From: Amoebophrya sp. A120
Lineage: Eukaryota > Protista > Dinoflagellata
DNA: 64,000 nucleotides
Reading direction: 5' to 3'
NCBI GenBank assembly: GCA_905178155.1
Contig: CAJINV010000019.1
Location: forward strand, 750,475-814,474
Shown piece after piece: positions 4,272 to 61,698 of this stretch. A model generated the notes under the pieces. The model saw nothing but the letters and a program-made list of their open reading frames with translations, had not been told where the DNA came from and made no database searches. A program made the position numbers and the translations under genes. Numbering within the stretch: the stretch's first letter is position 1; each line of letters starts with the position of its first letter.

Positions 4272-7200
4272 CTATCGCCCCCCAGCACCACCTCCATTAC
4301 CATTTCCCGCAGATGAAGCCGCCACCAGTCCCGGCCGGAACCGCTTTATCGGGTGACCCTCCGTGTTGAAGACGAAGTTTTCCAGGGACAAAATCGACTC
4401 CCCAGCGTCCTTTTGGAAGAGCAAGTACAGGTATTTCAAGGTTTCCGCCGTAAAATAGGATTCCTGTTTGTCCATGATTCTCGGCTTGAAGAACAGATGC
4501 CCAGCTTTCGGATGGTTCTTCTCCGGGTTTTTCCACGTCACCGAACTGTACTATGGGACTCTCAAGCGTTACATTCTCGACTGTTACATGATTTGCCATG
4601 CAAAACTAGCACTATCATCTACACGATCAAGCTGTTCTGCGTGACAAATTCTGGAAGGGCCGAGCAGGCAGATATCTGTCATGCAAGACGCGCAATGCCC
4701 CCCTTTCACTTTTCCCATTCTTGCGTCACAAATCCATGGAACAGTTGAGACTGTAACAGTTGAGAACGCCATATGTACCCGAACTGCGTCTTCGTGTGCA
4801 TCTCGATCGCGCGGAAGATTTCGTAGCCGTACTCCTGAAACTTTTTGTCGCGGGTGTAGTAGTTATGCAATGCAAAAGCATCGCACTAGTATAAATTGCA
4901 TTACAAATTTTCTCAGCATGAGAAATGGAATTTCTAATGCGGATTTAGCTTGAGAAGGAAATTTGTAATGCATGCATGCGATTACTATGAGTACGATACT
5001 TTTGCAATGCATAGTAGTACATGTAGTACAGCGATTCCACCACTTCGGGCCGTAGATGGAACACCTTGTCTTCCTGGTCGCAATACGTTAACTTTTTCTC
5101 GCTCAAATCCCGCTTCAGCCGAAACCTCGTCGCTTCACACGCCAACCCGAAATAGGTCCGCTTGTACATGTTGACGCACGTATCCATTAACTGATAAGCC
5201 GTTTCCACCCAGCCATCGTCCCTTATCGTGACGGGCAGCTCGTAATACCCTAATACCAGCATCCCCGGGACGAAGCAGGACAGGTGTTCCATCCGGTTAA
5301 TTAAATTTCCCGACTTCGCCTCCCTTAAAAAGATGTTGTCGTCGTGGGGCGGAAAGCCCTGGATCAGCATTCGCTGCGACAGACTGTACATAGCGGTGCG
5401 CCACTCTAGGGGGTTATGCATTGCAAAAGTATCGTATGCAGTGGAAATTGCATTACAAAATTTTCAGAAAGAGAAATGATATTTGTCATGCATATTCAGG
5501 TAAGAAACTGGATCTGTGTCTGTCATGCAGTATTGCAATTAGTACGCGTGCGTCGATGCCTTTGCAATGCATACAGGTTTTGCTTCGTGGATTCTAATTC
5601 CGATTTGATCTTCTGCTTCAGTTGCTGTTTCGCCGACTCGGAAAGTTCCTCCGGAAGATTGGTGTTCTGTTGATCCGTTGTTTCTATGCCTTTCTCCTTG
5701 TTCAATTTCTCCCGAATCGCCAAGTGCTCCTTCTGCATTTTAATGTTTTCGATGTTTTTCATGCTGTGCATTCTGTCGTCGGTTATTTTACTCGCAAGGT
5801 TGTCGGATTTCCGGAACTGATTCCTCATTAACTCCTTCTCCTGTTTGTTCGTTCCGCCGAGCAGTTCCGGCGGGTAGGTCTGCGGCGCTTTCTCCCGGGA
5901 CAGGGGCGGGTTGGTTTCGGAGCCGGGTGGCAGGGTCTCCTCCGGGTCTTCGGTTGGAGGGGGTTTATGTGGCACCTTGTTTGTTCCCTGTAGGGGTGCG
6001 GGGGTCTGTGCTTCGGAAGAAGAAGACGCAGGCTCTCTTGCATGATTTTCTTTTTCTTCGACTGCTGGTACTGGTGGTAGTGTGGATGGCGGTTCCGAGG
6101 TCGTTGCTACTTCGGCAAAGCTGCTGGGGGCCGGGTCCTCAGCGGGAATAGGTGGTGGTGCTGGTGCAGATGCTGCGAGAGCCGCGGATGCGGGAGCTAT
6201 AGACGTAGCCGCAGAGGCGACTGCAGGTGGTGCGAGCGCGGCATTGGCTGCGAAAGCAGCTGCTGGCACTGCCGAAGTTGCCGTCGAAAGAGGTAGTGCT
6301 GTTTCCGTGACAGTAGCACTAGTACTAGCTGGTGCGGATTTACTAGCAGGTACAGCTACTTCTGGAGCTGCACTCGTGTCAACTGCAGCACCTGGTACCG
6401 CTGCGGCAAACGTTGTTGCGACCACGACATCTTCTGAAGGAGATGAAGACACACCAGCAGGCACAGCAGGTTCGCCACTACTACCTGCCGGAAGCAACTC
6501 TGCCAACCTTCTTGTTGCTGGCTTCTTGCCCGTATTCTCGTCTATTCTCAACGGCGGAGGTGTTGAACCTGTTGAACCTAAAGCCGTTGGTTTCTCAAGA
6601 GCAGATGGAAATCCATTCACAATTTCCTTCTCCAACCTCCTTACCATTTCATCCCTCCCGATTCCCCAGCCCGCTTCCTTCAGCGGGTCCCTGAATTTCT
6701 CCCGTTTTCGCCCAATGTCCCGTCCCTCCGCGCAGAGTGCATCCCGTTCCGCAGGAGAAAGGGAAGCGATAGCGGTCGCGTTCTTACTACCAGTACTAGC
6801 AGTCGACTTGGTCGTCATTTTCGCAGACGCAGTTGTACCGCTACACCCCTCCCGATAGATGTTGTGCATCCAGAGGTGTGTCTTCAGCAAGTACTCGTAA
6901 AACGAATCCGCACCGGAACCGAAGGAGTAATCCGAGCTGACAATCACGCCCGAACTCGGGTCCACGAAGTTCGGCAACAGCCCGTGCACCTGCCGCATGA
7001 GAACTTTCGGATCTACCAAAAGCATCTGCTGCCGGTCCACCAGCTCCTGGTACCGGGGATTTTTCAACGCGTAGGAGAGAAACCGCCATTCCAACTGCCA
7101 AGTGCCGACTTCAGACAAGACAAAGTGCTGCGTCCACTCGTGGCGTCGGCTTTTCCGCTGTTTCAGATTGATTTCCGGGAGGATCATGATCCCGGAGGTG

Positions 7201-10200
7201 GGGTCGTCGTCAAGGGAGATTTTCTTATTAGAAGATGATCCTGGCTTCTTCCCATTTGCCACTTCAAACATTTTTGACTCGATCATCAGATCTGCGAATT
7301 CCCTGGCTTTGCTAATTAAAATTTGCTTCTGCTCTATCCAGGAAAAAAACTGTGTAAGTGTAAGTTTCTTGCAGGAATAGCATCACAAGTTTCCTCTGCA
7401 TGACACAGAAAACCTGTCATGCGTAGCTAGTACGTGAAAACACGCACGAAAATTGCCTCTGATGCATGTCCAGCATGACAACTGTAAACAGTTTTGCATT
7501 TTCTGCAACACTAATTTACACTTACACAGTTTTTTTCTTGGATATGCTCCCCCGCTTTTTTCAAATTCTCCACGTCGTGCTGTTTCCGTTCGTACCAAGT
7601 GCAAAAGTGTCTGGGTCTGGAAGAATGCAACTTGTGGTGCTGCGTTTGGATTCCAAAAACATTTGTATTGCATGAGTCCCAAAGGGAATGCAGTTTTTGC
7701 TACGCTGAGAAGGCATTTGTCATGCAGAATAGGCATCAAGAAGCCCTCAGAAAATCTGTATTGCTACGGTATGCATCACAGACATCATGGCTCATGCAAA
7801 ACGTGCATGACAAGTGTCAGAATCTTCCAGACCCAGACATTTTTACAGTTGATAGTTCGTTGCTCAATCCCTTCTCCTCGTCAAGCTCCAACAAGCTGTA
7901 CGCCCCTAAGAGCCCGCCAATCACGCGGATGTTGAGTTCAAAAGAACTGACGAAGTTGTCCTTCGCTTCTTCCAAAATGTTCAGCTGCTGAACCCAATTC
8001 TTCACCGCGTCGTCGAATTCTTTCCGCATCCCCATCAACAGCATCGTGTCCAGGGATTCAAACACCATCACCCCGACGCCCGCCCAGTTAAACGGGTTGC
8101 CGGTCAACGGCTGGATTTCGTCATTTCCAAAGGTTTTCTGTTTGTAATTTTGCCACACGAATTATGGGAGTGTCAGGATTGAAATCGTCAAAGTTGAAAT
8201 AATTTGTCATGCATAAAACCGATAACAGTCGGAAGCCCACTTATCAAGCGGCGCATGACAAATTTTCCGAGAACTGGAAATCAATTTGTCATGCTGTTTG
8301 GGGACAGAGGACTGCTTTTGTCATGCTACTTTAGCAGCTCTATCCCAAACCCCAAACAGGCCGACAACCGGCCTCACTTGCAATCCCTGCAACACAGTCA
8401 CTTCGTGCCTTGCATTTTATGCATCACAGATGATTTCAACTTTGTCGATTTCAATCCTGACGTTTCCATACGAAACGCATCGCTTGTTTCACCTCTTCCT
8501 GCCACTTCTCCGGCTCGTGGACACTGATCGGCGCCTTCATATGAAATGCAAAAGTGTCTGGGTCTGGAAGAATGCTGCAACTTGTCATGCTAAATCTGAA
8601 GCATGCAAAAATCTGTGTTGCATGACTACCAAAAGTCGTCCAGTTTTGACCAAGTCGGGAGGGAGTTTCCCATGCAGGATAGGCATGAGAGAGATCGCGC
8701 AGAATCTGTCATTCTAGGTCCTGCATTCCAGACCTCATGGGTCATGGAAAAGCTGCATGACAAGTCGCGCACTCTTCCAGACCCAGACATTTTTACATTT
8801 GATACTTCACCGGGTTCAGCATTTCCTCCGGGACGCCCTTCTCTTTCAGCTTGATTTTCTCCTGCTCCGGGATATCAAAGTAGTTTTTCCGGTTCGGGTC
8901 GAGGTGGATATTCCGGAGCTTTTCGATCGGCGCAACCGTCTCTTCACCGGGAAGGAGGTCTTTCCGCGTGTTGAACTCTTCATCAGCGGTGGGCTGGGGG
9001 CTGGGGTTATAGGATTTTGAAAAAATATGAGATGGACAAATGCACGTGAAGCTAAAAATGCGAAACGCAGTGGTCTCACTGACTTCACTATGACATTGTG
9101 TATGTGCATTACAGAGTGGCAGAGTGGCAAAGCAAGCACGGCGACGATCACACCGGGGAGGCATCAGTGACAATTTTGCCAAGGCATCACGCAACTGAGA
9201 AGAGATACGGACGGGCGCATTTTTTACATGACAAAGAAGAAAAGTGATGCGCACCCGTTCCGAAAATGTTGAAAGTTCAAAAATGAAAGCAAACCCACAC
9301 TGAAATTTCTGAAAGAAAAGGAAAGAAAGAAATTGCTACCCTAACTCAATCCGATGCGAGAAAAAGAGACTTCTTTATAGTGAAACAGCTGCAGGCCGCA
9401 TACTAGTAGGTCTTAGACTTTCTAAGGTTTAGGTCGACGCTCAAGGCCCTAAGAGTAGAACTACTGCGCTAAGAAATAAAGAAGAACGACGGAGCTGCTG
9501 GATTTTTGTTTTTTCCCCCATACTGAGTGGAGCGTGTTCACCCTTGTAGTAATTACAACTTCCGATCGAAAAACAAACTGGGGCCTAAGTACCGGTGTAT
9601 ATTCCTCTTCGCATGCGCTTCCCGCATCAAAGCTGCGTTGTGCTGCGCCAACTCCCCAAGCACCGCGTCTTGCATCTCGTGCTCGTATTTGAACGCACCA
9701 TTTTCCGGCTTTTGCTTCTTCTCCGCCGAGATCCGCTCTTCGGAGATCCCGTGCTTTTTCTGTCCGTTCAGCAAATCTTCCGACTCCAACTCATCTTTCA
9801 CTACACCATTCAACCCGTTCGCCGGCACCACCCCGAACGGATCGCTGTTCTCCGCTGTCTTCGGTGGAAAAGTCCGAATATCCTTCAAGTTCACCGGCTT
9901 CCGGTTCTTCGAGCCCTCGAAATAGTTGTCCATCGCCGGGGCGGGGGTCGTCGTCACTCGTTTGTTGAAGGACAAAGTTCCGTCGTGGTTTTTGCTGAGC
10001 GCTTTGTAGCTTTTCTCGAACTGGTCGTGGTCCCGGAAAAGGTTCGCCATGTTCTTCTCGATCGCGTGCTTTGGCTTGAACGATTTGGACTTTTGTTTGT
10101 CCTTTTGTCTTTTACCCAATTCTAGGAGAATCTTCTTGATCAAGATCTGCATGTTTTCCTGCGCGGACTTCGGCTGTTGAGAAGCTGCTCCGAATAAAGC

Positions 10201-12742
10201 GTTCTCGTGGTGCGAGTGCAAAGGGTCGTGGTCGCCCAGTGACTGGTCTGCTCCACCTTGTTCAGCGGCCGTTGGGTAGTAGCTGCTGTCCTGTTCTCGT
10301 GGCCGGTAACTATCGTCCAGCCTGACATTGACGTATTTCTGCAAGACCAACTGATCCCTGGTCGTTACTTCCTGCCCTTTCGTCAAGGGGCTCGCACCCC
10401 CCACCCCGCGCGTGAACTCCAACGGCTGCGCGACTTCGAAGAGTTCGACTTGGTCAACATCTGATTTAAACGCGATGTTTTTCAAAACGCCCTTCTCTAA
10501 CCGCACTACCTCCTTGTCGTAGACGGAAATGGTGAAATCTGCGATAAACCCCAAAAAGAACGAGCCCCCGAGCCTGCTCCCGCCGATGTAAGTCCCTCGC
10601 CCGAGATGCCGCGTCGCCATGTCGGACAGGAGTTTCTGGCTGTTTTTGGGTTTGATCGGTCTTTTGAACCGGTTCTCGACGAAGATTTTACCCCGATTCG
10701 CGGTCGCAGTGTCCGCGACGATCTCTTTCTCGATGAAAATCGCGACGTGTCGGTCCATTCTGAACCCAACCCGAACCCACTGGTCCAGCGGTAACGCGAA
10801 CGAGCTTGCGAGCTCCGTGCAGGCCGACCTTTGCGTGGACCAGTTGAGAAAGAGACGGACCTCCGGCGGATCGAGAGGTGGAGCGGATCCGGATATTGGT
10901 GGGGTAGAATATGCTGGAATTGAATCGCCGCCAGTGCCACCTTGTGAGGACGTCGAAGTTACTTTCGGTTGCGGATCGTGGCCCTCCCGTTTCCCATCAT
11001 CCGTGTGGTCTTTCTGATACTCGTCCCGTATCCGCTGCGCGGTCCGCTCTCGGTCCGCCGCCGTCGCGTAGTATTACCGTGAAAAATGCCCCCACCCCCA
11101 AAGTTGGAATAATTTGTGATGCGAAGTTTCCAAGTGAAGACTTTTTGTCATGCATGAAAGGAATATGAATCTTTGTGATGCAGAGTCTAGGCGTATATAG
11201 CGTTGCTAGCTTGCATGACAAGCGCCGCGCTTGCTGGGATCTGTCGCAATACAAATCTTCGCTATTCACGATAACCAATCTGTGATGCTGCTAGATGCAA
11301 GAGGGCGAGTGTTTCTGTTGGAAAGGTTTGCAATACAAATGCCCCCAAGTTCGGGGGTGGGGGCGTTTTTCATTGTGATACGTAGCCGCGGAGATTTTTG
11401 CTCCGCGTCGCGACCGACTGCAGCTCGTCGGAGGGGCGCGCAGGTGGATCGTTGTTATCATTTTGATGGCCATGTAAGGAAGCTGATGAAGATGACTTCG
11501 AGGACGGCGCTCTCGTATGATCTTGCCGGTTTTTGTTTCGACTGCTGTTGGCGTACTGTTTGTCTGTTGTACTCTTGCTCCTGCTTTTCTTCTCCCCGCC
11601 GCGGACAAGCACGCTTGCTTTGGATGAGTCCTCTGTGTCCTCTTCCCCCAGAAGTTGTCGCCTTCCGTTCCTTCCCCCACTTTGCACATGGTCGCGCAAC
11701 CGTATTACCTTCCCGCGTTCATGGGAGTAGATGCCGAAAAACCAGCCCGGCCGCTTTTCGTGGTCGCTGCCGCGGGTGCAGGATCCGAGCTTGTTGCTCG
11801 CGATCGGCATGCCCTTGGAGAGCAAATCCAGGCCGATTTTGCTGTTCAGCAGCTCCGAGCTCACGTAAATGTATGCGCCCACCTTCAGATCCGCGCCGTC
11901 GTAGGTTTTCGTGGAGAAAATGTAGTTATCTCCGTAGTATCATGTGCAAAAGTATCGTACTCGTAGCAATTGCAAATATGCATCTTCTTCCTAAGGTAGA
12001 ACAGCATTACAAATTTTATTTCTCATGCTGAGGAAATTTGAATTTGTGATGCAGTTTGTGCTAGAGCTAGTGCGACTGCGATGTTGCTTTTGCATTGCAT
12101 ACGTAGAAAGCGAACGTTTCCGCTTGAAGGTTCAAGGTTTGCAGAAACTCCCCGCGTGCGTGGTTGTTTTCGTAGCCAGCGGTGGGAACGAGGGTGAGAG
12201 CATGTGACGGATCAACACTGCTTCCTGAGCCGGATCCACTATGTCGTCCCCCTGGCAGAAGTCCGTAGAAAGTCTCATAGTCATCCGAGTTGATGTTCTT
12301 GGAATTTGTGGTCCCGCCTTTTAATGCACCACTTCTGCCTCCCCCTCCTCCCGCTGCTCCGCCTGCTAGTACCTCGTCGGCTCCTCCTTCGCCAGACGTG
12401 GCTTCCAAATGGTCCAAATTGATCAAGTTGCTGCCATCGGACAGCTCCCCCGCGGTGCGCCACAGGTCCAAAAGGTAGTAGGCCCAGAGTGTCACCACAC
12501 AGCTCACTATGAACTGCAAAAGCATCGTATTCGTATAAATGCATTACAAATTTGCTCAGCATGAGAACTAAATAAATTTGTAATGCTGATTAACGTTAAG
12601 AAAAATATTTGTAACGCAAGACTTGCATTTATACGAGTACGATACTTTTGCACAGGATACACACCACGGCGGCGTAGGTGGTGCGCATGGTACGCCAGGG
12701 CTGGCGCAGGATGGCGCCAAGAGTATCCAGGAGAACCTTCAT
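4272..12742 (-). CDS. Glycoside hydrolase family 47 alpha-1,2-mannosidase with N-terminal TM anchor, LamG-like domain and a large low-complexity insertion (multi-exon, 10 introners)
   Basis: GH47 motifs: VKQAMRFVWQNYK, FGNDEIQP, FESLDTMLLMG, FELNIRVIGGLLGAY, SEVGTWQLEW, GSGADSFYEYLLK, EHLSCFVPG, LRPEVVESLYY, ESYFTAETLKYLYLLF, NTEGHP. Start (MKVLLDTL) inferred. Confidence 0.9.
4552..4773. mobile_element. Introner, family C
   Basis: TIR tatgggactctcaagcgttacattctcgactgtt / aacagttgagactgtaacagttgagaacgccata. Perfect 5-bp DR tgtac. Removal gives KTQFGYSSVTW. Confidence 0.9.
4864..5013. mobile_element. Introner, family B
   Basis: TIR tatgcaatgcaaaagcatcgcact / agtacgatacttttgcaatgcata. DR gtagt. 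Removal gives LYYMYYYTRDKKFQEYGYEIF (GH47 helix). Confidence 0.92.
5415..5573. mobile_element. Introner, family B
   Basis: TIR tatgcattgcaaaagtatcg / cgatgcctttgcaatgcata. Flanks ggggt/caggt. Element+5 removal joins ORF 5523-7286 to ORF 4945-5421 in frame. Confidence 0.85.
7335..7544. mobile_element. Introner, family H2
   Basis: TIR tatccaggaaaaaaactgtgtaagtgtaa / ttacacttacacagttttttttcttggata. DR tgctc. Removal gives KKAGEQKQILISKAREFAD. Confidence 0.9.
7593..7854. mobile_element. Introner, family A
   Basis: TIR taccaagtgcaaaagtgtctgggtctggaag / cttccagacccagacatttttacagttgata. DR gttcg. Confidence 0.92.
8163..8470. mobile_element. Introner, family D
   Basis: TIR tatgggagtgtcaggattgaaatcgtcaaagttgaaat / atttcaactttgtcgatttcaatcctgacgtttccata. 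Flanks cgaat/cgaaa. Removal gives VKQAMRFVWQNYK. Confidence 0.92.
8540..8804. mobile_element. Introner, family A
   Basis: TIR tatgaaatgcaaaagtgtctgggtctggaag / cttccagacccagacatttttacatttgata. DR cttca. Interior closely similar to the copy at 20068. Confidence 0.92.
11072..11380. mobile_element. Introner, family F
   Basis: TIR tattaccgtgaaaaatgcccccaccccc / gggggtgggggcgtttttcattgtgata. DR cgtag. 314-nt removal puts ORF 11370-11882 in frame with ORF 9553-10758. Confidence 0.9.
11938..12101. mobile_element. Introner, family B (reverse orientation)
   Basis: Ends tatcatgtgcaaaagtatcgtactcgta / gcttttgcattgcata. DR cgtag. Removal gives ETFAFYGDNYIF. Confidence 0.88.
12508..12659. mobile_element. 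Introner, family B
   Basis: TIR tatgaactgcaaaagcatcgtattcgtataaatgca / tgcatttatacgagtacgatacttttgcacaggata. Flanks ctcac/cacac. Lies within the TM-coding segment. Confidence 0.88.
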
Positions 12743-42800: not shown

Positions 42801-45800
42801 GTCTTCGTCGACTACTCTATAAGCATCGACGAGGTCAAGGCCATGCCTTTCGGCGACCTTCAGAAATTCCATCAACTGGTTGGTTAGGGCTAGCGCCAGG
42901 TCTTCATCTTCTCCAAATCTTTCGGGCACGGTCGGATCGTCGGAACTTTTCTTTTCCTTCACTTCCTCAGAAACAATGAGAGGCGCTACCCGGTTGGCTG
43001 GCGGTGCCGATGGTAGTTCCTCCTCTTTTGACAATTGCATGCCAGGCGCGCCTGCTTCTGGTTGTAGTTGCACGTCGCCACCGCCCGCGCCTCCTACCAG
43101 AGCAGCGCCGTCTCTGTGTAGATCATCATCTGCTGTGCCCATCCCACCGCCACCCCCACCTGGTCCTCTTTGCATGCCAGGGTGGTGCATGCCGTCGACC
43201 ATCGCAACATCACGGAGGATCGCACCGCCGTCACGCCCTACATCTTCGTGGCCACCTGGCGGTGGTCCGGGTCCACCGTGGGGGCTGTCGAGCATTCTTG
43301 CATTCCACAGGGCGTCGGCATACTTTTTTTCTTTCGACCGGGCGTCGGTGGCGGCGTCTGTCTCGATGTCGGCGGCCCGTTTCATCGGGCCGCCTTTTGG
43401 CTGTGGAGGCTGATGAGCGCGTGCAGGGTCGGCTCGTTGGGGTTCAATTCTTGCGGAGAAGTCAATCTCCCATAAAGCCTGGCAAACTGGTGGTGTAGGA
43501 TACTTGAGCCCTTCTTCGCCTTGCAGGTTGGTAATTTTGAACAAGTCGAGGGGCTGGTTGTCACCACCATTATTCACTTTCCATTTCCGATGAGGAAAAT
43601 CTCTCCCGTCCGCTGATTTGAGCACGAACCCAAAGTCGTTCCCCCGAAACCAGTCGCCTCCGTGCGCGTCTATGGTGTTCGGGTCAGTGACGATCATAAC
43701 GGTGCGGTCGCTGAGCTCATTCATTTCAAATTCGTTTTTCGACACGTCCCGCAAGAAGTTGAAGAACAGGGCGGGGCCCCCGAAATTGTCGCCGAAACTT
43801 GCTGCAAATTCTGGCTCTGACCAAAGTAGAGGAGTAGATTTTCCTGGTGGGGGTAGAAAGTGAGCGTATTCGCCCCTTCCTTTTTCCGGATCAAAGTTTG
43901 CCAAGAAGCTCACACTTCCCATGAAGTTCGCGTTCCACTTTCCAAGAGCCGTGCCTTGGTTTTCGATACTTCGAGACCCAAGCGGTGCTATCGCCCGGGC
44001 TTCGGAAACAAGACGAATGGCCGGAAACTTGTTCTTCAGATCTATTTTCCCATCTTTCGTAAACAGTTCAGGCGCTGCGCCTTGCAAGAAAGAGTCCAGG
44101 GTCTGCATGTCGCGCAACATGGGAGAGCAGAGAAAGACCATTCTCTCCGTGGTAAAGCTGAGCCTTTTAGTATTAATATCTTCTGCTCCTTGTTCCTGCA
44201 ATACTTGTTCGTCCGGCTTTTTTAGGTGTCCCTGCAATACTTGTGCGAACTTCTCGCCTGCCAAACGCGCCTGCTCTTTGCCTTGCTGTGTGAGCGGCGG
44301 ATCTGGAATTTCGACATCGCCGGGCCCCGTTCTCTCAAGAGCGTAGCTGCTTCCCATCACCAAAATTCCCTGCGGCGGACCCACGGTGGCTCGATCTTGT
44401 CGCGGTGCAGACGCAGGAGCTCGTGGTGATGCCAGTAGCATGGCAGCCCCAGTGCGCGGTTGCAGTGCCGGATTTGGCGTCGCCAGTGCTGGCGGCACGA
44501 CACCCGGGCTTTCTTCCGGGTTCGGCTTCTTCACGACGTCCCGAACAGGGGTATGCACACCCGCGCCCGGTGGTGGAAGGCAGTCCTTGCACGACTCTTG
44601 GAAGGAGCTTTGATGCGACGGAGCAGCAGCAGCTACCGGCAACTCTTCTGCATCTGCTTCGGCCCGTGGCAAAAATTCATCATCCGTGATCGCAGGCGAC
44701 GCGGATCCTCCAGAACGCGGGTTTTTCGAGAAACTGCGCCTGTTGGTCTTCTCCTTGGTTCCTGAGCCACTCTCATCGTCGTTCAGAAGGAGCGGTGCTT
44801 GTGCCAACGCGCCGCCATCTTCATTTCCTTCTCGTGGTTCATCTTGTCGTTCCTGCACGCCAGGAGGTCCGCCCACATGGCGGCCCACCTGGTTCCTCGC
44901 TGTTGCAGCCGCACCATGGGCAGGTCCTAGTCCTGTGGTCCCGGTCGTCGGTCCAGCTGCACCTCCCGAGCTGCCGTAATTGCGCTTTTCCAACGCGGAG
45001 GAGGAAGCAGTTTTCGGCCCTGTGGTCCCGTCGGGCGATGGTTCTTGTGGCACATCGCGGATGCCAGCACTTTCGTCTTGTGCAGGAGAATTTTGCCCCT
45101 TGTTCATCTCGAGGACAGGGGCCAGGAAATGTTCGGTTTCTTTGTCCGTGGCATGATGCGCATGCTGCGTCATCTCTCGCGCCCCGGGGGCGGGGGTGTG
45201 AAAAGAGCGAGAAATACCGGACGATGAGTCGTCATCTCCTTGCGCATCATGAAGATGCTGGTGCAGCAGCTTCAAGGTGCTGTCGTCCTCGCCTCCAGGA
45301 GTAGTAGCACTGGATGAACCAGCACGAGAACTGTCAGTCGTCTCTTGCGCGAGGACACTCGACCCGGCAGGGTCGGGCGGGTCCTTGTTCTTACCACCAG
45401 TGTCGCGCCGTTCTTTGACGCCGGGTTCGAGCACCACCACGGGCTGCGCGGTGTATGAAATGCAAAAGTGTTTGGGTCTGGAAGAATTGGAACTTGTGAT
45501 GCAAACTCTGGAGCACACAAAAATTTGTGTTGCGTGAGCGGCAAACGCTGCCCCTTTCTTGGTACGCAAGTAGGAAGTTTCTCATGCGGGACAGGCATCA
45601 AGAGGCGTGCTCAAAACCTGTGATGCTTCTGCCTGCATCAGACACCATTTGCGTGATCCAAATATGCATCACAAACAAGTGCTTTCTTCCAGACCCAGAC
45701 ATTTTTGCAATCCATACGGTGCCGGGCTTCGCAATCTTTCCGTCGCAAGGACACGCCAACAGGGAAAAACACGAAGTAGATCCAAAGAGCAGGAGTTGAC

Positions 45801-46153
45801 TATGGCGTTCTCAACTGTTACATTCTCAGCTGTTACATGAATTTGCCATGCAAAATTGCAATAGGCCTCCACTTAATCAAGGTGCTTAGCATGACAAATT
45901 GTCGAAAGGCTAAACAGCATGATAATCTGTGGCCAATCTGTGATGCGAAAGCTGCAATGTTGCAACTTTCACTTTTGCTGTTCTTGCATTACAAGTCCAT
46001 GCAACAGTTGAGAGTGTAACGTTTGAGAACGCCATATTGCCGTGTCCGACGCAACGACAAGCTGCACACGGGCCGCGGATCGTGCTGGTTTCTCTGTTGT
46101 GTCGCCTCAACACACGACAAAGACTTTTTCCGCCCTGCTGGTGCCGCCCACAT
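33872..46153 (-). CDS. Very large lineage-specific protein (or 2-3 tandem paralogs): hydrophobic N-terminus, degenerate histidine-phosphatase-like domain, three copies of an uncharacterised helical domain
   Basis: ORFs 42453-45569, 40832-41581, 37916-39316, 37192-37821, 36042-36493 and 33872-34831 share ordered motifs (see findings). Introners at 45801, 45454, 37810 and 36254 restore frames. Other joins unverified. Confidence 0.6.
34794..35122. mobile_element. Decayed family A introner
   Basis: Ends tatcctgtgcaaatacgtctggg / cccagacatacaacttgcagtagata. Direct repeat no longer recognisable. Confidence 0.55.
35170..35466. mobile_element. Decayed family A-like introner
   Basis: Ends tatgcattgcaaatat / atatttgcaattgata. 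Interior diverged, no clear DR. Confidence 0.45.
36254..36430. mobile_element. Decayed family B introner
   Basis: Ends tattctgtgcaaaagtat / atactttggcattgcata. Flanks cagga/cgtaa. Element+5 removal joins ORF 36221-36493 to 36042-36302 and matches the paralogous domain. Confidence 0.7.
37810..38000. mobile_element. Introner, family B
   Basis: Ends tatcctctgcaaaagtatcgt / acgatacttttgcaatgcata. Flanks ccctg/tcccg. 196-nt removal joins ORF 37916-39316 to 37192-37821 in frame. Confidence 0.85.
45454..45716. mobile_element. Introner, family A
   Basis: TIR tatgaaatgcaaaagtgtttgggtctggaagaa / ttcttccagacccagacatttttgcaatccata. DR cggtg. Confidence 0.92.
45801..46036. mobile_element. Introner, family C
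   Basis: TIR tatggcgttctcaactgttacattctcagctgtt / aacagttgagagtgtaacgtttgagaacgccata. Flanks ttgac/ttgcc. Confidence 0.9.
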
Positions 46154-47251
46154 CGTTAGTCGTATGGTGGGCAGCTGCTCTTTTAGTGGAATCAATGAGA
46201 TGATAGACGAGGGGTCTACAAATTCAAATCGCCGCTTCTTGCTTCGCTTTTGTGCAAGGCAAAGACGAAACGGTTCCGTGTCCGTTTGATTTTTGATGAA
46301 GATTCTTGTTGGCGGATTCAACTTCAAGGGTTGGTTGTGAGTGAAATAAACACGAAGATGATGATGGGGGTTGCAATTTTTTTACGGGTCGTTCTCCTGA
46401 AGGAGCTGATTTTTTATTTCGAAAGTTGATCTACACCGTGTCTCAATTTGGTGTTGAAGCAGGCGGGGTGCTGAAAGTGGACTGCAGCACCTCCGTGCTT
46501 TGCTGTTACTGTCGCAACTTACACAAACGCTAACATCACAGTGATACTAACGACGAGCGGTACCATGAACGAAGCTCAAAATAAAAAAAACTACAAAACA
46601 AAAAAGATTTCTATTTCTTTGCACGAGTTGTATGTATGTACGCCGAATTTTCCTGCCTTGAACGAACGACGGGAAGAAAAAGCCGATTTTTTTGCTTGTT
46701 GTCCGAGGTGACTCCTGAGTCTCAACGTATGAGGGATGGACGAAAACCGATTTTAGATTCCTACTTGCGCAAATAAGTAGTTGGACTACGACGTACTACG
46801 CCTCGACGAGTGACGAGAATAAAAATGGTACCGAGCAGATGGAGTTGCACATTTCCAATCTCATTGATCACGAACCACAGACGAAAACTCAATGCTTTTT
46901 GTACAGTCAAAGAAGTGCTCCTCTTCTCAGAACAACTGTATAATGAGGTTCAGTGCAAGTAGTACTGCCACTGCCACCTGTTCCATGCACATTTTTTATG
47001 CAAGAAATTGTTCACCTTCTAACACGTTATTCCTTCTTATTTCGCCTTCCTTCCTCTAGCGACAAGCAATCACATCACATACAGCATGCGTAGCGAGCGG
47101 GTTTCTGGACAGGATGTCAAGTTTTTTCAAAATTCGACATGTTCAGCGTCTTCTCCCCAATACCAATTCCAAAATCAAATGGAAAAATTAGTAACGCAAA
47201 AAGACGAGGCACGACCAAAACCCATTTCAAGGAGATGTCGACAGGAGAAAT

Positions 47252-50156
47252 CTAGTACAAGTTTAGCTTCGTGCACATTGCCACCCGCACGGATTGGTCG
47301 AGGGAGGCGAAGACGCACAGCCCTTCCTTGTTCAAATGCCAATCGAAGCTCACGATTATGCATTGCAAAAATGTCTGGGTCTCGAAGACTGTCATGCTAG
47401 ACCTAATCGACACACAGATTTGTATTGCGTGATCAGCAAAATAAGCTTTCACTTTTGGGCAGCCGAAGCCGAAGGCAACATTTCTCATGCGCAATAAGCA
47501 TCGAGGAGCCCCCTGCAGCTCAAAACAAAAACTTGTGATGCTAGCGCCCGCATTCCAAACCGAAGCCTTGAAGACCTTGACCTTCTGAGTAATGCGAACC
47601 CTGCATGACAAACCTTACATCTTGTTCCAGACCGAGACAGATTTGCACTGGATAGCGATCGGTTGTGTGCAAAGCTCCTTTTGATTCAACGTCTCGACGG
47701 TTCCGGCGACACCCTTTTCGAGCCCGTCGTTCACTTCGACCTGATATTTGTTTATTCGTAGAGGCTTGTTGCATGATAAGGACAACAAGCACCAGCACAA
47801 GAACTGCAACACAAATTCTACTTTTACCTTTTGTTTTTCTTTTTAACCATGCCGAAAGTAAAGAGCCTACCCTGCACGACCAGAACCAATCTTTCGTACC
47901 TTCCGTTCCGCTGGGTACACGTACTTGTGGAGTGTGATGCTTCCGTTTCCCCCCACCGTTGCAAACAGCTCTCGGTTTTGCGGCAGGAAGTGACACCCCC
48001 AGACCGTCGACTTGGTCACTTTTTGCGTCCTCCCCGCGAAGCCCTCTTCGGGGTGGTAGGTCCTCAGATCGTACACAATCATGTTGGACTCCAGCGTGGA
48101 CACCGCGAGCTTGTTCATCAGAATGTCTTTTCGATCAAACTGGATGTGGCAAACTCCGTTCTTTACGTTGGTGTCCCATCTGAGGTGTTAGTTGTTTTGG
48201 AGGCGATTTCGGATTTTTAATTTCATACTTTTTCAATTCATTATTTCCAAGACATCGAATGGACGACTTTTTGCTTGGCAGGAAGAAAAGCAGACTTCTG
48301 CCATTGTCACCAGCAAACCGCTGCATGTGATTCCTTCGCACGCAACCATTGCATCAAGGCCAAGGCCTCTTGATGAGGTTAGTATTCAGATAGCGAATAA
48401 GAACATCAGCATTACCTCAACATGTTTGTCCTGAGATCGAACATTTTGATGTCTCCGTTGTCGTAGCCCGCGCATATTACCCGCTCAGAATCGTTGTAGC
48501 TATTGCCGAAGGCGACGGTCCAGCAATCTGCGGGTATCTCGCCGTCCACCGGCTCCAGGGACAGCACCTTGCATTTCGGTATTTCATTTTTGAAAATGTA
48601 CAGTCTTTACCTTTGGCTACTTTGCGTTTGCTTCATTACGCAAGAAAGGCGAAGCACAAGCATGACAGTTTTATGGGACTACATACAGTCTCAGTCACCG
48701 TATCCACAATTAAAATTCGAATCTTTTACCGGATCCTGCTGTCTGGGGTCCCACACCCGCACCGTGCCGTCTCTTTCCTATCCTTGCAGAAGCTTGAGTC
48801 TGGCAAGAGCCACAGATCTTGAAATTTCAAATTTTCGTGCAGTGCAGCTGCAGGTGCAGCTAGCATTTCCATCCATGCAAAATAAAAAAAAGCGGATGTG
48901 GACCAATTATGCAAGTGACTGCACGACCTGCACTTCGTCATGTCTGTGAGAATTTTGGCAGTCTGACTCTACGAAACGACCATTTTCGCTGCGACTCAAG
49001 AGTTTCCGAGAAGTATTGATCCGGTCACGAGCTCTGGTGCGCCGCCACCGATACCCAGGCCCCCGCACCTGAGAGTTAGTTTGATGCCTTGCGACGTCGT
49101 GTTTCTTATTCTTGCAGCTGCCCTACGATATGAATGTGGTCTAGTCATTTTGTTCAGGCGTTTTTTCGTTCCCATATCAAGTTCATCTTCCGCTGCTGTG
49201 CCACCTGACACTGTTCTGTTCAGGTACGAAACACATTCTACTACGCTTACTCTCATCATGAAACAATTTGCTTCTAATAGAAATCCTTGTACCCTTCCAC
49301 GCAATTTATGATTTTATCGTGCCCCCGGACCTCGAAGATCGGTTTTCTTATGTCCTCGAGGTCCCATATTGCCAAATTCCCCTCGTAGTCCCCGGTCGCC
49401 AAATGTCTCTGCTCAATCGCCGAGGCGCCGAACGTACCGCACTTGAAGCCCTTTGGCTTCTCGGTTTCGGAAAGCTTCTTGACCTGGTGTTGCAATAAAG
49501 TACTGAATGTAGCACCATCAGGTCATCATTGTATTCATGGTCCACATTCTTGACGACTCCTCGTCCTCGTCCGGCTTCTCTCTCAATTTGAAACTCTAAT
49601 CTGCGCATCTAGGAATGGTTCGTCACGAAGAGGATGCATATCATCAATCAGATCCACCGTACAATTACAGTTAGACAGGACCAAAAATAGCTGCCTAACT
49701 ACTCCAGGTCCAGCAAACAACGACAGTAAACACCATGCAGTATAAAAATACCTTCCCCCTCTCTAGTTCGTAGACCGCCAAAGCGCCGGTCGCCCTTGGA
49801 TTCTGGCCGAGCACCACAAACCTTGCGGAGTGCGGGACCCACTTCGCCTCGAAGGGGTATGGCGTTCTCAAACGTTACACTCTCAGCTGTTACATGATTT
49901 GTCATGCAAAATGACCATGACCTGCCAGACGATGAAGCTGCTGCGCATGACAAATTATCGGAGGGCTAAACAGCACTATAATCCGCACGAAACCTGTAAT
50001 GCAAGACGCGCAAGGCTCTCCCTCTCACCTGTGCTAGTCTTGCATTACAAATTCATGTAACAGTTGAGAATGTAACACTTGAGAACGCCATAAGGGGGTG
50101 AAGTTCAGGCCTTCGTGCGTGTGCAGGATGATCTGCGGCGAGTTCGTGGTGTCCAT
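47252..50156 (-). CDS. WDR92: WD40 protein WDR92/DNAAF10 (axonemal dynein assembly, R2TP-associated), multi-exon
   Basis: PQIILH...[61 protein letters not shown]...[32 protein letters not shown]...TKLNLY match the WDR92 family. Confidence 0.93.
47357..47654. mobile_element. Introner, family A
   Basis: Ends tatgcattgcaaaaatgtctgggtct / agaccgagacagatttgcactggata. Flanks acgat/gcgat. Removal gives CTQPI(A/V)SFDW. Confidence 0.88.
49858..50092. mobile_element. Introner, family C
   Basis: TIR tatggcgttctcaaacgttacactctcagctgttacatga / tcatgtaacagttgagaatgtaacacttgagaacgccata. DR agggg. Removal gives LNFTPFEAKW. Confidence 0.93.
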
Positions 50157-52514: not shown

Positions 52515-52746
52515 GCGGAAAGCCCAGGGGCGAGCGATTTCCTAAAAGAAATTATGCGGAAAGCCCAGGAGAAGGCATTTCCCAAAGGAAATCACGCGGA
52601 AAACCCAGGAGAAGGGATTTCCCAAAGGAAATCACGCGGAAAGCCCAGGAGAAGGGATTTCCCAAAGGAAATCATGCGGAAAGCCCAGGAGAAGGGATTT
52701 CCCAAAGGAAATCATGCGAAAAGCCCAGGAGAAAGGATTTCCCAAA
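52515..52746 (+). repeat. 40-bp tandem repeat (gcggaaagcccaggagaagggatttcccaaaggaaatcac), about 5-6 copies
   Basis: Head-to-tail units with no spacers. Confidence 0.9.
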
Positions 52747-55388: not shown

Positions 55389-57134
55389 CTAGCTGCGAGT
55401 AGATCGATGTTGTTCTACTACCGTACCAACCACATAGACATACCTGATAATCATGTCCCCGTGGTCTTTCGCCATCAGCCTTCCTTCCCTCAGTCCCCGC
55501 CTCCTACTCTCCGCGTTCACCTTTGTTACCGCCGCCGCTTTCTTGGGCATGCCCCAGCCCGGTATTCTGCGCTTGAAGGAAAGCTGCAGGGCGTCGATTT
55601 CCAGCTCGGCAAGACTGTTATCCAGCATCTTAATCTGCATATGAACTGCAAAAGTAACGTCCTAGTATGAATAGCATCACAAATTCCCCCAGCATTTTTA
55701 GAAATGGAATTTGTAATGCTGTTTTACATATAGGAAGAAGATTTGTCATGCATGTTTGCAATTAATAGTACGAGTACGATGTTCATGTTGCCTTTGCAGT
55801 TCATACTGCAGCGGTTTGGAAGAGCCGCTAGAGGACCGCGTGCCCAGCAGCCATTCGGAAACAGAAACCGTGCACAGGTAGTAGACATCGTGCTCGTTCT
55901 GCAGCTCGAATCGCGCGTGATCCTTCTGCGTGATCAGATACACGGTTTTCGGCCGGGCAGAGGAGGCCGCTGCATTGTCGTCGTTCGCAAGCGACTGCGC
56001 GGCGAGCTTCGTGCCCGGCTTAGTGGCCTTGGGGATCGAGATCGTAGAGGCCTGAGAGTGTGTCGTGTTTTGTACATTTCAACATCATCCTCCCGAATGA
56101 CAACGAGCAAAGAACTACAAACAAAGGTAGCACTTAGAGTTACAACTGCCACGTAAAAGATCGCTGCAGTAGATTCCCGCGGCGCGACGTCGACCAGCAG
56201 CACTCTTCTAGTTCTAGGTCGACGATGCATGCACGACAGCAAGATGGAAAAGCAAGGTGGTTCAGGTTCTTCGACGTGGCATAGCAATAGCTGTCAAACA
56301 AACGCAAACTATAAGTACCCCTGCCCTGGTCTCGACCCGTTTCTCGCACCCGGTGTAGAGCTCTTCGAGGGTGCAGGCAACTTTGTAGGTTGCTTGTCTA
56401 TCCCGGCTCTGCTGCTGCGGAAAGCCGAACGCATTTCCGCCGAAGAGCGCGGCGAAGGGATCCACGGCACCGCCGCCGCCCATATTTCCGCCGCCACCTC
56501 CCATCGGGCCGCCAAAGGAGAAGTGTATACCTGGTATAGCATTTTCTCAGCATGATCTTCACGGCCGCACTCAATCATGTCGAGAGAACGTGATCTTGTT
56601 CATACAATCTAAATTTTCACGCTCACCTGCAGAGCGGCGTACTAAAATTATCTTCTTGCCCTCTCCTCCGCACGTAGTGCTCAAGTCTACAAAACAGTTA
56701 CCTCCCGCCCCGCCTGGGCCGCCTCCCATAGTGAATCGCATGCCCCCACCGCCGGGCCCGCCCATGCCGCCGAGGTCGAAATTTTGGCCGAAAAAAGCCC
56801 GGAAAATCTCGTTGGGGTCGATGTCGTGGCCTCCGTGGAAGCCGCCGCCCGGCCCGCCGCCGCCGCCACCCGAGGACATGCGCTTCCAGGCGTCTATGCC
56901 AAGCTGGTCGTACTGTTTTCGCTTCGCCTCATCGGACAGTACTTCGTAGGCCTCCGCCACCTGTTTGAACTTGGCCGTGGCTTGCTCCTGGTTGTCCGGA
57001 TTTTTGTCTGGGTGCCATTTTATCGCCAGTTTTCGGTAGGCCTTCTTGATCTCGTCTGCGGAAGCTTGTTTTGGGACTTCCAGGATGTCGTAGAAGTCCT
57101 GCGAAGATGAAGACGAACTGGAGGAGGAGGACAT
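55389..57134 (-). CDS. DnaJ/Hsp40 class B co-chaperone (multi-exon)
   Basis: J domain ([27 protein letters not shown]), G/F-rich linker, [27 protein letters not shown]. Confidence 0.92.
55640..55805. mobile_element. Introner, family B
   Basis: Ends tatgaactgcaaaag / cctttgcagttcata. DR ctgca. Removal gives SSKPLQIKMLD. Confidence 0.88.
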
Positions 57135-59592
57135 ATTGGTCGTGGCAGGCTGTCGTAGGAGATTGGTCGCGTAAGTCGTCGGTATAATTGGTGCGGAGGC
57201 GGACGGCGCGGAGGGATGATTGAACCAAGCCAAAAGCAAAGCTCAAACAAATGCGCACGACTACTTTGCTGCGGAGCCGGGTCCTTAATATGGCGACAGG
57301 AAATGTTGGGCAGTAGGTAACGAAAGCCGGGTCGCAATTCGTTGCAAACAAGGGACGGAGGTTGGTGATATAGGGTTTAGGGGAAAGAACTACTAGAACA
57401 ATGCGCTATTTTGTCTTCCGATGGGATCGATACTGGTTTGAAGAATGCGGCTGGTGTGATTTATCTGGAGGAGAGCGCCGTAGTCGTATATTCGTTCCCC
57501 GGGAACTACTAAGTACCTTCAAGGCGGCTACCGGATCGTACAGGTGTCAGTGCTGTGCAAGAACGGTATCGCCTTGCGTGAAGGTGGAATGTTATTGTTT
57601 GCAGTGAAGAAGCGTCGCCCGGTTTTGTTTACTAGGGAAGCAAAAGTGCATTGAATTCCGAAAGCCACTTCGCGACGACACTGACAGCGAGCGGCCGAAA
57701 GGAAATTCTACTTCTTCGTCCCACTGCAATGCGAGCAAAACCTTGTTGTGTCAGAATCGCCACGACCGAGCGCCGTGCTGCATGTTGCTGCACATGAACA
57801 ATATTAGAAACTGCAGATGTAGTCGTAGATCTTCGTATATATAATGCAAGCTTTCGCTCCTGTGGAGTAAATGTAAGAGATGGCTATAGCTCCATGAAAA
57901 AATACTTTGAAACCAGACAAAACAAAAATGTAAAAAAATTTTGTGGGCGAAATGGAAATCGCCTTATGTACAACTACTGCAACTACTTCTGACAAAAACT
58001 ACGTGTGTACTTAGTCGGCTGAAACACCGCTATGATGTCAGAGTCTACAAGAATTCGTAGCCAGGCTGAAAGTTGTCACGACAAAGTTCTTCGTATTTAT
58101 GTGACCTCGACTCGAAAAAAGTATACAATCTCACTTCAGGAGTTAGCGACGCAGTGTGACTAGTGCTTGAATTGCTTTCCACACCCGGAGATCATTGATC
58201 CTTTGAATTTTCATGCGGGTCAAATACAAATCAATTTCCTCCGAAAGAAGTCAAAAAGCAAAACGGAGCACTACATTGATGGAACACTGGCGTGTATGAA
58301 AATGTGCATGTGGGGCCATCAAAGCGGATCCTCTAATCCAGAGATCGCGCTTGGTGGATTTTGGATTTATTTTCGAGACACAGCCACAGCGTGACTCTGA
58401 CTCATCTTGGGGGTAGTGCATGAGAAGTTCAAGAACCGCCTTTTTCTTGTCGGTGTCCAGATTTCGTAAAAGCTGTGCAAATAACAGTTCATCATCCCGC
58501 GCTCGCGCCAAAATTATGTACATGTTCTTCCGTTTCGGAAATAACTACGTAGCTAGTAGACGTAGAGGGTTAGAATTTTTATGTATTTTACCGTAGCTCA
58601 AACGAAACAGGACCTTTTCCTTCGCCATGTTCTGGCAGGATATGCGAGGCAGCTGCACCGGTTCTTACTAGCAGTAAGTTCTGGTCGGACCTGAAAAGGA
58701 ATCTTCGTAGGACGCGCCGGCGCGTCGCCCGTCCGTAGGCAACCTACGTGCGGTGTGACGTCGTCGATTCCTCTTTTGCACCGTATCCGTATCTAACCAA
58801 AGCAAACTGAAGCAGAATTTTGTTTCGGGGACATACTTGAAAACGAGAACGACGGGGTGGTAATGCTTATTTCTGGGGTAGGCTGTTCTGTGTAGTACTG
58901 AAACCACGTCCATATTTTGTACGATAATACATTTTATGAAACACGATTCCCGCACCAACATGTAACCCATAAGATAGAAGCGAGCTAAGAAGCTATGGTA
59001 AAACTGAAAATTGTTTTGAAATCATTCTGAAACTGAAAACTTTTTGTAGTATAATTTTTGAAATTCTGTCGTGCCGTCTGATTCTATTCCTGCGTAATTA
59101 ACCTAAACTGATTTAGATTTTGCTATTTTTCCTGTGATAAACTTCTCGGAATTTTTGTGTCTGATTTTCTGATAAACTGAAATTTTAATTCGACGTATCT
59201 TATTTCCCCTGAAGATTCGCTTTAGAAGTTTAATATTGTAACAATACTGCTTTGAAGATGCTATGACGTTACCTTTTTTGAAGATGAAGAAACGATTGCT
59301 ATTTTACATGACAAAGTAGATGCTTTTCGAATAGAGCCCAGAGCGCTGTGGGACGTGCAGTAAGTCAGTGCAACATCCCGATCGTTGAGAATGACAATTG
59401 ATAAAAGACGAAGAGGTGGAATAATGGAAATACGTTAAAGCAAAAGCAATAGAATTTTCATGCAGTATTTGATTTCGTTGTCTACTACAACCATGCAGAG
59501 TCGCCAGCATGCGCCCGAGAGACCGCTACATTTGTTCTTCGTGTAGTTTGGTGCACTTCTGCGACATCAGTTCGTATTTTCCCTTTGTTCCT

Positions 59593-61698
59593 TTACTTCT
59601 TCATCTTCATCAGGCTCTTCATGATTTTCCCGGTGTGGGCGGTGATCAGCTTGGCCTCCTTGTTCTTGCCCGGGCCTCCAAGCGCCGCGGCCTTGAACTC
59701 GGACAGACTGAGCGTACCGTCCTTGTTCACGTCGGCCTTCTTGAAGATCGCCTTCAGGTAGTCGATCTCGGACTTTCCCAGCGCCTTCATTGTCTTCATG
59801 CTGGTCATCTTGTCCGCGATCTCCTTCAGCATCTGCGGCTTCGGCGCCACGGGAGCTGGAGCGGCGGCCATCATCTTAGATTTCATCTTCATCGGGGTCG
59901 GGGCGGCGTATCGCAAGGAAAAATCCCCCCTCCCCATATCGCAACGAAATCTCTGATGCTGGATTTGCGTAGACAAATCAGATCTGTCTTGCAGAAAGTG
60001 CTTGGCGGTATTTTCTAAGCCTGCTCGTTGGGTATAATGCAGAAGGCGAGCAATTGTGCATGGCAAACAGGTTTGCAGTAGTCGAATGCGCATGACGGAC
60101 TTGCTCTGGAAAAATGCGTCAAATAGCTCCCCTTGCATTATATGCATGACAAAGGTGACTTGTGGCCACAAATCAGCATCACAAATATCCGCTTTGATAT
60201 GGGGAGGGGGGATTCTTCATTTTGATACGGCCATCATCTTCATCATCGGCGTCGCCTTCATCACCGGGGCGGGCTTCGGCGCTGCCGCCTTCATCATCTT
60301 CATCATCTTCGCTTTCATCGGGGCCGGCTTCGGGGCGGGAGCCATCTTCTTCATCATCATCTTCATCTTCATCGGCTTCGGCGGGGGAGCGACAACCATC
60401 TATCCACTGCAAATATGTCTGGGTCTGGAAGGTTGGAACTTGGGATGCTAGCTTTCCATACCTCGGAAATCTGTATTGCATAACGAACAAAAGTCGCAGC
60501 CTCTTTTGTACAAGGAAGCAAGCAGCACGCAGTTTCTCATGCGGATTGCCCATGAGAAAGCGTTCTGGAAAGTTGTCATGCTAGATTGCATTCGGAACTG
60601 TTTCCATCATCCACATTTTAGCATCACAAGTTTCCAGACCCAGACATATTTGCATTTGATACCATCGGGGCAGCCATCATCTTCATGGTCATTTTCATCG
60701 GAGTAGGTTTCGGGGCAACCATCATTGCCTTCTTCATCTTCATGGTCATCTGAAGGTGTTTTTTGTACTAGTTGTGTACCGTGGATGTCGAAGTTGATGT
60801 TGATGTGCATGACGAAATCGCATCACAAATTTGGTCAGCATGACGAAATGGAATTTGTAATGCGGATTTTCCTTAAGAGAGAGATTTGTAATGCATGGCT
60901 GCAATCGAAGTATTATCTATACCTTCATGGGCTTCTTCATTTTCATGGCCATGGCCATCTTCTTGCGCATGGGCGGCTTGTAGGGAGCCAGCGCCGCGAA
61001 GGCCGCCTTCTCGTCAATCATTTTGGGAGCCGCCGCCATCATCTTCATCGGACTCGGTGCCTTCACCATCACCGGAGACTTGGCCTTCATCGGGGTCGCA
61101 GCCATCATTTTCATCTTCATCGGCTTGGGAGTGGCCATCTTCATCTTCATCGGGGGCCGGTAGGCCGGGAGAGCAGCGAACGCAGCAGCCTCGTCGATCT
61201 CCGAAAGCTCGTCCTGGTGTTAAGGTTTGGATTTTCAACATTCCGCTATCTAAAATGCTGGTCTTGGATCTACTTTGCATGAGGTATATTGTGTTGCAGA
61301 ACAACAATCTAGACTTCTTTTCTCTTTCTGTAAATGCAAATGCACGTCTCCTTGTCCTAGTCCTGTCACGCGCTATCGATTGAACCATTATGTGAAGATC
61401 AAGGTGAACAAACCAAAATCAATACCACAAACTCAATATCTACCGGCTCGTCCGCAATGGAACGGCGGGGAGAGGGGGACTTCCTGGGCGACTTCATCGG
61501 CGACTTGGACTTGGCCATGGGCTTGCGCAGCGACGGCAGGGCCGGCATCTTCGGCAGCTTCGGGAGGCGCACATACTTGGAGAGGCGGAACTTCAGCCAC
61601 GTCTTCTTCGGGACGTACTCCACCGGCTCTTGCGCCTCGTCCGGGTAGACCAAGTTGAAGGTCATGTCGTAGCACCCAAGCTCGTATTTGTCGAACAT
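59593..61698 (-). CDS. Met/Lys/Pro/Ala-rich basic repeat protein with C-terminal EF-hand
   Basis: Exons joined via GT-AG introns 61214-61443 and 60750-60922 and introners 60401 and 59909. PMKMKMM repeats. EF-hand IFKKADVNKDGTLSLSEF. Confidence 0.8.
59909..60227. mobile_element. Introner, family E
   Basis: TIR tatcgcaaggaaaaatcccccctccccatatc / gatatggggaggggggattcttcattttgata. Flanks cggcg/cggcc. Confidence 0.9.
60401..60661. mobile_element. Introner, family A
   Basis: TIR tatccactgcaaatatgtctgggtctggaa / ttccagacccagacatatttgcatttgata. DR ccatc. Interior similar to 19761-20006. Confidence 0.92.
60750..60922 (-). other. Canonical GT-AG intron containing a family B introner core
   Basis: Donor AAG|gtatag and acceptor ttcag|ATG keep the frame. 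Interior aligns by eye with 4898-4972. Confidence 0.7.

Follow-up and report, generated by a model that had tools for sequence, protein, structure and literature searches.

The introners of Amoebophrya sp. A120 are elements of about 240 nt that sit in coding exons and are removed from transcripts, with ends composed of TAT, seven variable bases and AAA, and with short direct repeats (PMC7789003). An A120 family is listed as 'Ginger; 5-bp TSD, TA/TA Termini' (PMC12130899 supplement 8), TSD standing for target-site duplication. The stretch analysed here, called the window, comprises 64,000 nucleotides of contig CAJINV010000019.1 (assembly GCA_905178155.1, positions 750,475 to 814,474 of the forward strand; coordinates below count from its first letter). 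Its introners carry an internal 14-bp site, repeated on a common helical phase in families whose interiors mostly cannot be aligned. The published end pattern (TAT, seven less-conserved bases and at least three A), the inverted and direct repeats and the removal from transcripts are all found here, and the family lengths of 106-322 bp tabulated in PMC12130899 match those observed. The direct repeats, published as variable and 3-5 nt long (PMC7789003), resolve here to a 5-bp TSD. No internal motif, spacing or phase appears in the text or the searched supplements of PMC7789003 and PMC12130899 (33 of 58 A120 rows, inverted-repeat logos excepted).

Several described systems share some of these features. 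IS3EU/GingerRoot elements have TA...TA termini with terminal inverted repeats (TIRs) and little target specificity, as here, but their TSD is usually 6 bp instead of 5 bp (PMC6839031; PMC10045372), and the word 'subterminal' does not occur in the main text of either paper. Their autonomous partners encode an integrase-related DDE transposase, whereas none is found among the 182 open reading frames (ORFs) scanned here. The TSDs of hAT transposons are 8 bp long. In the hAT elements Hermes, Tol2 and Ac, short repeats in two orientations reach past the TIR, as here, and a multimeric transposase binds these subterminal repeats, which mobility requires (PMC10368747). Hermes sites are 4 bp long and asymmetric (PMC10368747), whereas those described here span 14 bp and form polar pairs three turns apart, distributed over the whole element and across differing TIR bodies. 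Tdd-4 and Tdd-5 of the Ginger2/Tdd group have a 5-bp TSD, like the present elements, but their termini are TGTNR (PMC2836005) and not TAT. IS21, Tn7 and Mu combine direct repeats at fixed helical spacing (23 bp in IS21) with a 5-bp TSD, and the donor DNA wraps around these repeats on a transposase tetramer (PMC10122671); auxiliary repeats are required for transposition of Hermes and Tol2 (PMC10368747) as well as of IS21 (PMC10122671). These three systems are bacterial, with CA-3' ends and repeats confined to the ends, whereas the elements studied here are eukaryotic, non-autonomous and intron-forming, with a spacing of 31-33 bp. A repeated internal motif, conserved among copies and set at a fixed spacing, is common to transposase auxiliary repeats and to these introners, for which binding by a transposase may be proposed by analogy.

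An earlier note on the window had claimed that unrelated introner families share a motif, TGTNATGC, repeated in the same orientation at 31-32 bp. All 13 pairs that it listed are in place, 31 or 32 bp apart, eight with two exact TGTNATGC sites and five with a one-mismatch site; the full site, AAAYYTGTVATGCW, covers 14 bp and is longer than first noted. Elements were delimited by TIR and TSD only, the motif being unused, which gave 31 candidates in the window; candidate 34794-35466, whose ends are mis-paired, was left out, and the remaining 30 elements, from eight families, amount to 7,077 bp, with 56,923 bp outside. Exact sites number 80 in the elements and ten in the rest of the window, and 200 dinucleotide shuffles contain 2.3 on average (maximum 7). 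An unguided k-mer count ranks the motif at the top among both 7-mers and 8-mers and finds it in all eight families, and its density reaches 20.65 per kb in elements vs 0.41 per kb in exons and 0.59 per kb in intergenic DNA. The position V of AAAYYTGTVATGCW, described earlier as A, C or G, is indeed never T in the 80 window sites (A 22, C 38, G 20), but T occurs there in 15 of 1,208 sites of the additional loci described below. Pairs at 31-32 bp make up 10 of the 51 exact same-orientation pairs in the window (null mean 0.86, maximum 6 in 5,000) and 29 of 181 when one mismatch is allowed (null 3.2, maximum 11). Counted by family, P is 0.0006 for exact sites and 0.28 with one mismatch allowed, and further data were therefore sought. 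The elements of the window are given below; no strand is assigned except for the last feature.

1445..1658, introner, family C; 5 sites, without a 31-33 pair
1785..1958, introner, family B, degenerate; 3 weak sites
4552..4773, introner, family H; 4 phased sites, without a 31-33 pair
4864..5013, introner, family B; pair 4933/4964 (31)
5415..5573, introner, family B; pair 5484/5521, spacing stretched to 37
7335..7544, introner, family C, within a GH47 domain; pair 7473/7505 (32)
7593..7854, introner, family A2; pairs 7633/7664 and 7773/7805
8163..8470, introner, family D; pairs 8287/8319 and 8389/8421
8540..8804, introner, family A3; pairs 8583/8614 and 8723/8755
11072..11380, introner, family F; pairs 11115/11146 and 11213/11246; absent, along with one of its TSD copies, from a contig of probable RNA origin
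11938..12101, introner, family B; pair lost
12508..12659, introner, family B; pair 12579/12610
15037..15185, introner, family B; pair 15079/15110
17677..17928, introner, family A4; pairs 17718/17749 and 17842/17875
17998..18146, introner, family B; pair 18040/18071
19761..20006, introner, family A5; no exact site, weak pair 19919/19950
20068..20336, introner, family A3; pairs 20108/20139 and 20249/20281
20976..21298, introner, family E1; pairs 21031/21063 and 21114/21146
21348..21626, introner, family G; 6 same-orientation sites, 3 pairs (31, 33, 31)
27014..27277, introner, family A1; triplet 27164/27197/27228 (33, 31)
27333..27652, introner, family D; pairs 27466/27498 and 27571/27603
36840..37107, decayed introner with G-type ends; without any site
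37810..38000, decayed introner with almost intact B-type ends; sites and interior eroded
45454..45716, introner, family A2; pairs 45495/45526 and 45635/45666
45801..46036, introner, family H; 4 sites, pairless
47357..47654, introner, family A4; pair 47390/47421
49858..50092, introner, family H; pairless
55640..55805, introner, family B; pair 55712/55744
59909..60227, introner, family E3; 3 pairs (33, 32, 32)
60401..60661, introner, family A5; pair 60441/60472
60768..60922, minus strand, predicted GT-AG intron, TIR-less, with a well-kept family B interior; pair 60856/60887; 3' boundary uncertain

The held-out data come from 150 loci (L001-L150) of one assembly, scanned with the family A end pattern, which is free of the motif. 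They supply 405 further elements (the shuffled DNA control gave 1 in 310 kb), among which 317 have a perfect 5-bp TSD and 389 contain at least one exact site. Altogether, 435 elements of 109-326 bp, with no periodicity in their length, were grouped into 21 clusters, 19 remaining single. In this held-out test, 20 of the 21 cluster consensi show a same-orientation pair at 31-33 bp (null mean 4.5; best-bin maximum 13 in 5,000), and 353 of the 435 elements bear one. The recurrent peak claimed earlier thus stands, with a range of 31-33 instead of 31-32 bp and with family H lacking the pair. These pairs are polar, the first site outscoring the second, 31-33 bp on, in 30 of 38, and the smallest family, K (109 bp), has a single pair.

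All families have TAT...ATA ends and a 5-bp TSD. The logo of 870 ends gives T in 870, A in 870 and T in 852, the first two bases being demanded by the finder, and A occupies positions 11-13 in 787, 814 and 822 ends, families D, H and J departing from this A run. In a sample of 231 copies found through masked interiors, with neither ends nor motifs used, a perfect 5-bp TSD accompanies 162, and TAT mismatch is 2.9% in copies found without using the ends. End positions 4-10 vary above the interior on terminal branches (11.5% vs 9.1%) and draw on a small set of recurring end types, which suggests exchange of ends between copies.

After masking of the sites, alignments at z>3.5 remain for 9 of 210 cluster pairs, and the other 201 show no homology. 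Clusters A1-A4, E1-E3 and E1-D are homologous outside the sites, and the interiors of B, C and C2 form one homology component. Apart from these homologies, the interiors are mostly unalignable, as had been proposed, but the ends and TSD are common to all families. These homologies and common ends would suit descent from a single ancestor with internal repeats, the motif being without current function. Site number, order and orientation nevertheless differ among the clusters, most of them non-homologous once masked, while phase is kept, and change in core columns is four to five times lower than in the neighbouring interior, which makes descent by itself very improbable. In the 12 clusters with at least eight copies, mismatch to the consensus is 5.7% in cores vs 22.6% in the other interior, and 5.8% between the two TSD copies (the alignments omit copies more than 15% off the median length, e.g., 3 of 72 in B and 4 of 65 in A1). 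In trees, core change relative to interior change amounts to 0.19 for internal branches and 0.39 for terminal ones, and the private rate of cores, 3.5%, is near the TSD mismatch of 3-6%. The motif is thus conserved while the DNA between sites diverges, as the earlier note had it, and the uniform rates that a single recent ancestor would entail are not seen.

The wider rule is the helical phase of all sites, in either orientation. Distances between sites, both orientations included, follow a period of 10.35 bp (95% 10.1-10.5, bootstrap over homology groups), which excludes the 11 bp of A-form RNA. After removal of the 31-33 pairs, a phase of about 10.4 bp remains (mean cosine 0.39 vs a null maximum of 0.25 in 300), and draws of one cluster per homology group give P<0.05 in 18 of 20. 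Opposite-orientation sites share this phase if the site is centred near the TGT start, halfway along its 14 bp. Peaks lie at 15-16, 37, 47-48 and 58 for convergent pairs and at 17, 35, 48 and 66 for divergent ones. The first inward sites are distributed bimodally relative to the element end, with 115 at 32-33, 309 at 40-43 and 5 at 37-38 bp, and both states are represented in A4, whose copies differ by a shared +9/+10 change. A degenerate site lies inside the end itself in families A, B and L, and in B and L its distance to the first inner site is 31 bp; a general reading of the end as a degenerate site was rejected, being true for these three families alone. Since ends and TSD are shared and the sites keep phase with the ends, a single system seems to comprise both ends and internal sites, and the supposed cis-code independent of the TIR is not upheld.

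The core reads T-N-A-Y from either strand, and pairing between opposite-orientation sites is predicted for many consensi, as would be expected of an RNA element in which opposite sites base-pair to extend the hairpin or one orientation acts as a branch-point-like signal. Against this, the variable base agrees in 306 of 805 opposite-site pairs where 39% are expected, predicted site-site pairing is near nil in families G and M (0.00-0.08), and Rfam returns 0 matches. Moreover, family K has its sites in one orientation and is inserted three times sense and three times antisense, and pairing would leave the exclusion of T at V and the 10.35-bp period unexplained. An RNA element, already largely refuted, is hardly credible. 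Insertion occurs both ways relative to transcription in every family with at least four calls (288 aligned copies with strand called; smallest P=0.064).

Predicted GT-AG introns number 276, of which 219 passed filters and 149 are TIR-less. The latter contain 33 sites in 24.5 kb (shuffle 10.9), with a site in 24 introns (shuffle 10.6), a pair in 2 and none in 125. Because orientation is unbiased, covariation is absent and the motif is rare in TIR-less GT-AG introns, the motif appears as a double-stranded DNA feature of mobile elements, set apart from such introns and from intergenic DNA; a general spliceosomal intron signal is ruled out by the 24 of 149 introns and the unbiased orientation. The same-face protein binding put forward in the earlier note is the best fit to the 10.35-bp period, to opposite sites in phase and to the lack of orientation bias and covariation, the binding itself being what these features suggest. 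In the window and loci, the frequent GT-AG donors GTACTT, GTATAG, GTATAA and GTATGA correspond to G followed by a TAT or TAC start. A fraction of the canonical introns may represent fossil introners whose GT-AG was acquired from the target site, e.g., in L029 near 1744.

Removal from transcripts is visible in a run guessed to be RNA, in which a contig joins 11066 to 11381, the element and one TSD copy being gone. Depth in another run is about 30 over unique sequence and as much as about 130,000 in element-holding bins. When seven elements are excised, each together with one TSD, a 3,450-nt frame that includes the split GH47 domain is restored; this sets the removed length modulo 3 only (2, 5 and 8 score alike). 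Runs X1-X4 give no exon cover over 30500-46300, including the motif-less copies 36840 and 37810, and the 2026 RNA runs X9 and X10 yield only 58 and 7 mapped reads, in repeats.

Changes private to single copies reveal what is held after insertion. In the 231 copies, private indels number 7 in the terminal 13 bp vs 37 expected, a five-fold depletion, and 41 vs 43 expected at TIR positions 14-28. Together with the counts for cores and spacers given below, this indicates that resident copies strongly retain their extreme ends and, for the most part, not the motif. The terminal 13 bp, and not TIR positions 14-28, are a candidate minimal splicing signal, and RNA removal would rely on the 13-bp stem of the ends, together with the TSD, instead of the internal motif. 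Among pairs, 11.7% of 699 copy-intervals deviate in spacing by over 1 bp, vs 17.3% of 596 other intervals; the shifts in pairs are mostly private 3- or 6-bp insertions, and widely shared changes within pairs are of 1 bp. Private insertions favour multiples of three (179 of 371, 120 being 3 nt), and the removed length modulo 3 is flat (151/143/141); the excess looks like a mutational bias, which could bear on the fast protein evolution reported for Amoebophrya parasites.

It is fairly probable that the phased sites are auxiliary binding sites of the transposition complex of one non-autonomous TAT...ATA transposon system. We infer protein binding, wrapping of the DNA and the kind of protein involved, the mobilising transposase being probably IS3EU/GingerRoot-like and multimeric. 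Elements of 109-326 bp would need bending for synapsis of their ends, and a transposase multimer could wrap the short element on one face, thereby pairing them. Selection would act when source copies are mobilised, each successful lineage keeping the phased sites whatever its filler DNA. Two parts of the element are under unlike constraint, the terminal 13 bp in resident copies, likely for splicing, and the internal phased sites mainly among mobile sources, likely for transposition.

The protein on the phased sites might instead be a host chromatin or architectural protein, which would aid mobilisation as an HU/IHF-type helper or package the element. Nucleosomal periodicity overlaps the range of 10.1-10.5 bp, and the same motif occurs in families differing at TIR positions 14-28, both of which suit a host factor, as does the report of no transposase in A120 (PMC7789003). 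However, the motif is at background in exons and intergenic DNA, unlike a general host site, and the degenerate site within the ends of A, B and L is what transposase sites would show. A host protein is accordingly held to be unlikely.

Several observations weigh against auxiliary transposase sites. All extra elements belong to one assembly and cover a single lineage, and the held-out set is not an independent lineage, because the loci may be of the same or a close strain. Transposase or integrase families match 0 of 162 ORFs of the loci and 0 of 20 ORFs of the window, a small sample of the genome, and the five long TIR elements inspected are ordinary elements with other DNA inside, without a transposase ORF; general mobilisation by transposase is also argued against in PMC7789003. 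Family H has spread without a 31-33 pair, the sole exception among 21 clusters, and outward-facing sites are weakly phased to the ends (best period 13.9). Private indels are modestly depleted in cores (52 vs 70 expected, P=0.016) and in pair spacers (44 vs 67 expected, P=0.0016), and core mismatch is equal, 0.044, in copies with TSD 5/5 and 4/5. Because cores and spacers are depleted of indels, TIR positions 14-28 are not, and core mismatch is flat across TSD classes, weak selection in place is possible. About nine TIR-less motif pairs, at 31-35 bp, are further found, and old copies are recognisable through their ends only.

Such selection would be expected if a DNA-bound protein marked the resident introner and recruited non-canonical splicing machinery during transcription. 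Orientation independence suits a mark at the DNA level, as do the pairs kept by some TIR-less introns; most introners are also without GT-AG, and U1 small nuclear RNA was not found in A120 (PMC7789003). The indel rate at sites, cores and spacers alike, is lowered after insertion, but only to 65-75% of the interior rate; with sites decaying at this pace, the excisase or splicing mark on every resident copy raised in the earlier note is disfavoured. Moreover, of 316 copies assigned to a coding context, 57 have no pair, the spacing of pairs drifts as given above, and old copies such as 37810-38000 retain their ends and lose their sites. A probable RNA contig also leaves the window exactly at the TSD edge of the pair-less copy 11938 and continues for 591 nt (landing place unlisted). 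The predicted intron at 60820 is a family B copy minus its ends, since its non-motif interior is kept as well as the motif; selective retention of the motif in TIR-less introns, considered earlier, is weakened by these alignments, the 60820 interior being whole. A mark acting in place is therefore quite unlikely, and auxiliary sites of a transposition complex are still preferred.

The host genes recognised in the window lie on the minus strand and comprise a GH47 mannosidase split by introners (4552-8804), a Gtr1/RagA fragment (19449-19880) and a DnaJ domain (56574-57242). Several decayed introners (34794, 35170, 36254, 36516, 36840 and 37810) lie in 33872-39382, where coding stretches near 34280 and 37590 are similar to each other and where the genes have no contig cover in four probable RNA runs. 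Nested DNA is found within introners in L007 (9994-11248), L018 (505-1608), L025 (632-1465), L014 (1537-2349), L053 (3862-4492) and L015 (1603-2034); the inserts in L007 and L053 are related, and that of L015 is a 111-bp element nested in a D element. In L030 (1703-2178) and L011 (about 880-1110), a repeat without TAT...ATA ends holds fold-back motif arrays in a family B-like context. The family A end pattern has 0 matches in viral contigs. Other viral matches (46 to the motif pair and 22 stretches to family B ends) were rejected as chance, the 68 loci sharing with the consensi the pattern alone, mostly with spacing 33.

The motif is a strong and real feature of a known class of elements and apparently an undescribed one; no description of motif, spacing or phase was found in the searched literature, although Roy et al. 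2023 could bear on its novelty. As a cis-signal it is of a known kind, notable for being common to unalignable families and phased over the whole element. A rather unlikely variant holds that one protein on tens of thousands of resident introners licenses mobility and recruits the removal of non-GT-AG introns. Intron identity would then be read from the geometry of double-stranded DNA and not from RNA, and the protein may be a domesticated transposase DNA-binding domain. If the phased sites are auxiliary sites of a transposition complex, many unalignable non-autonomous families would have converged on, or retained, one three-turn binding geometry. The motif offers a direct handle on the movement and splicing of Amoebophrya-type introners, a 14-bp site with set geometry serving as a bait for the missing factor and as a signature for an autonomous element.

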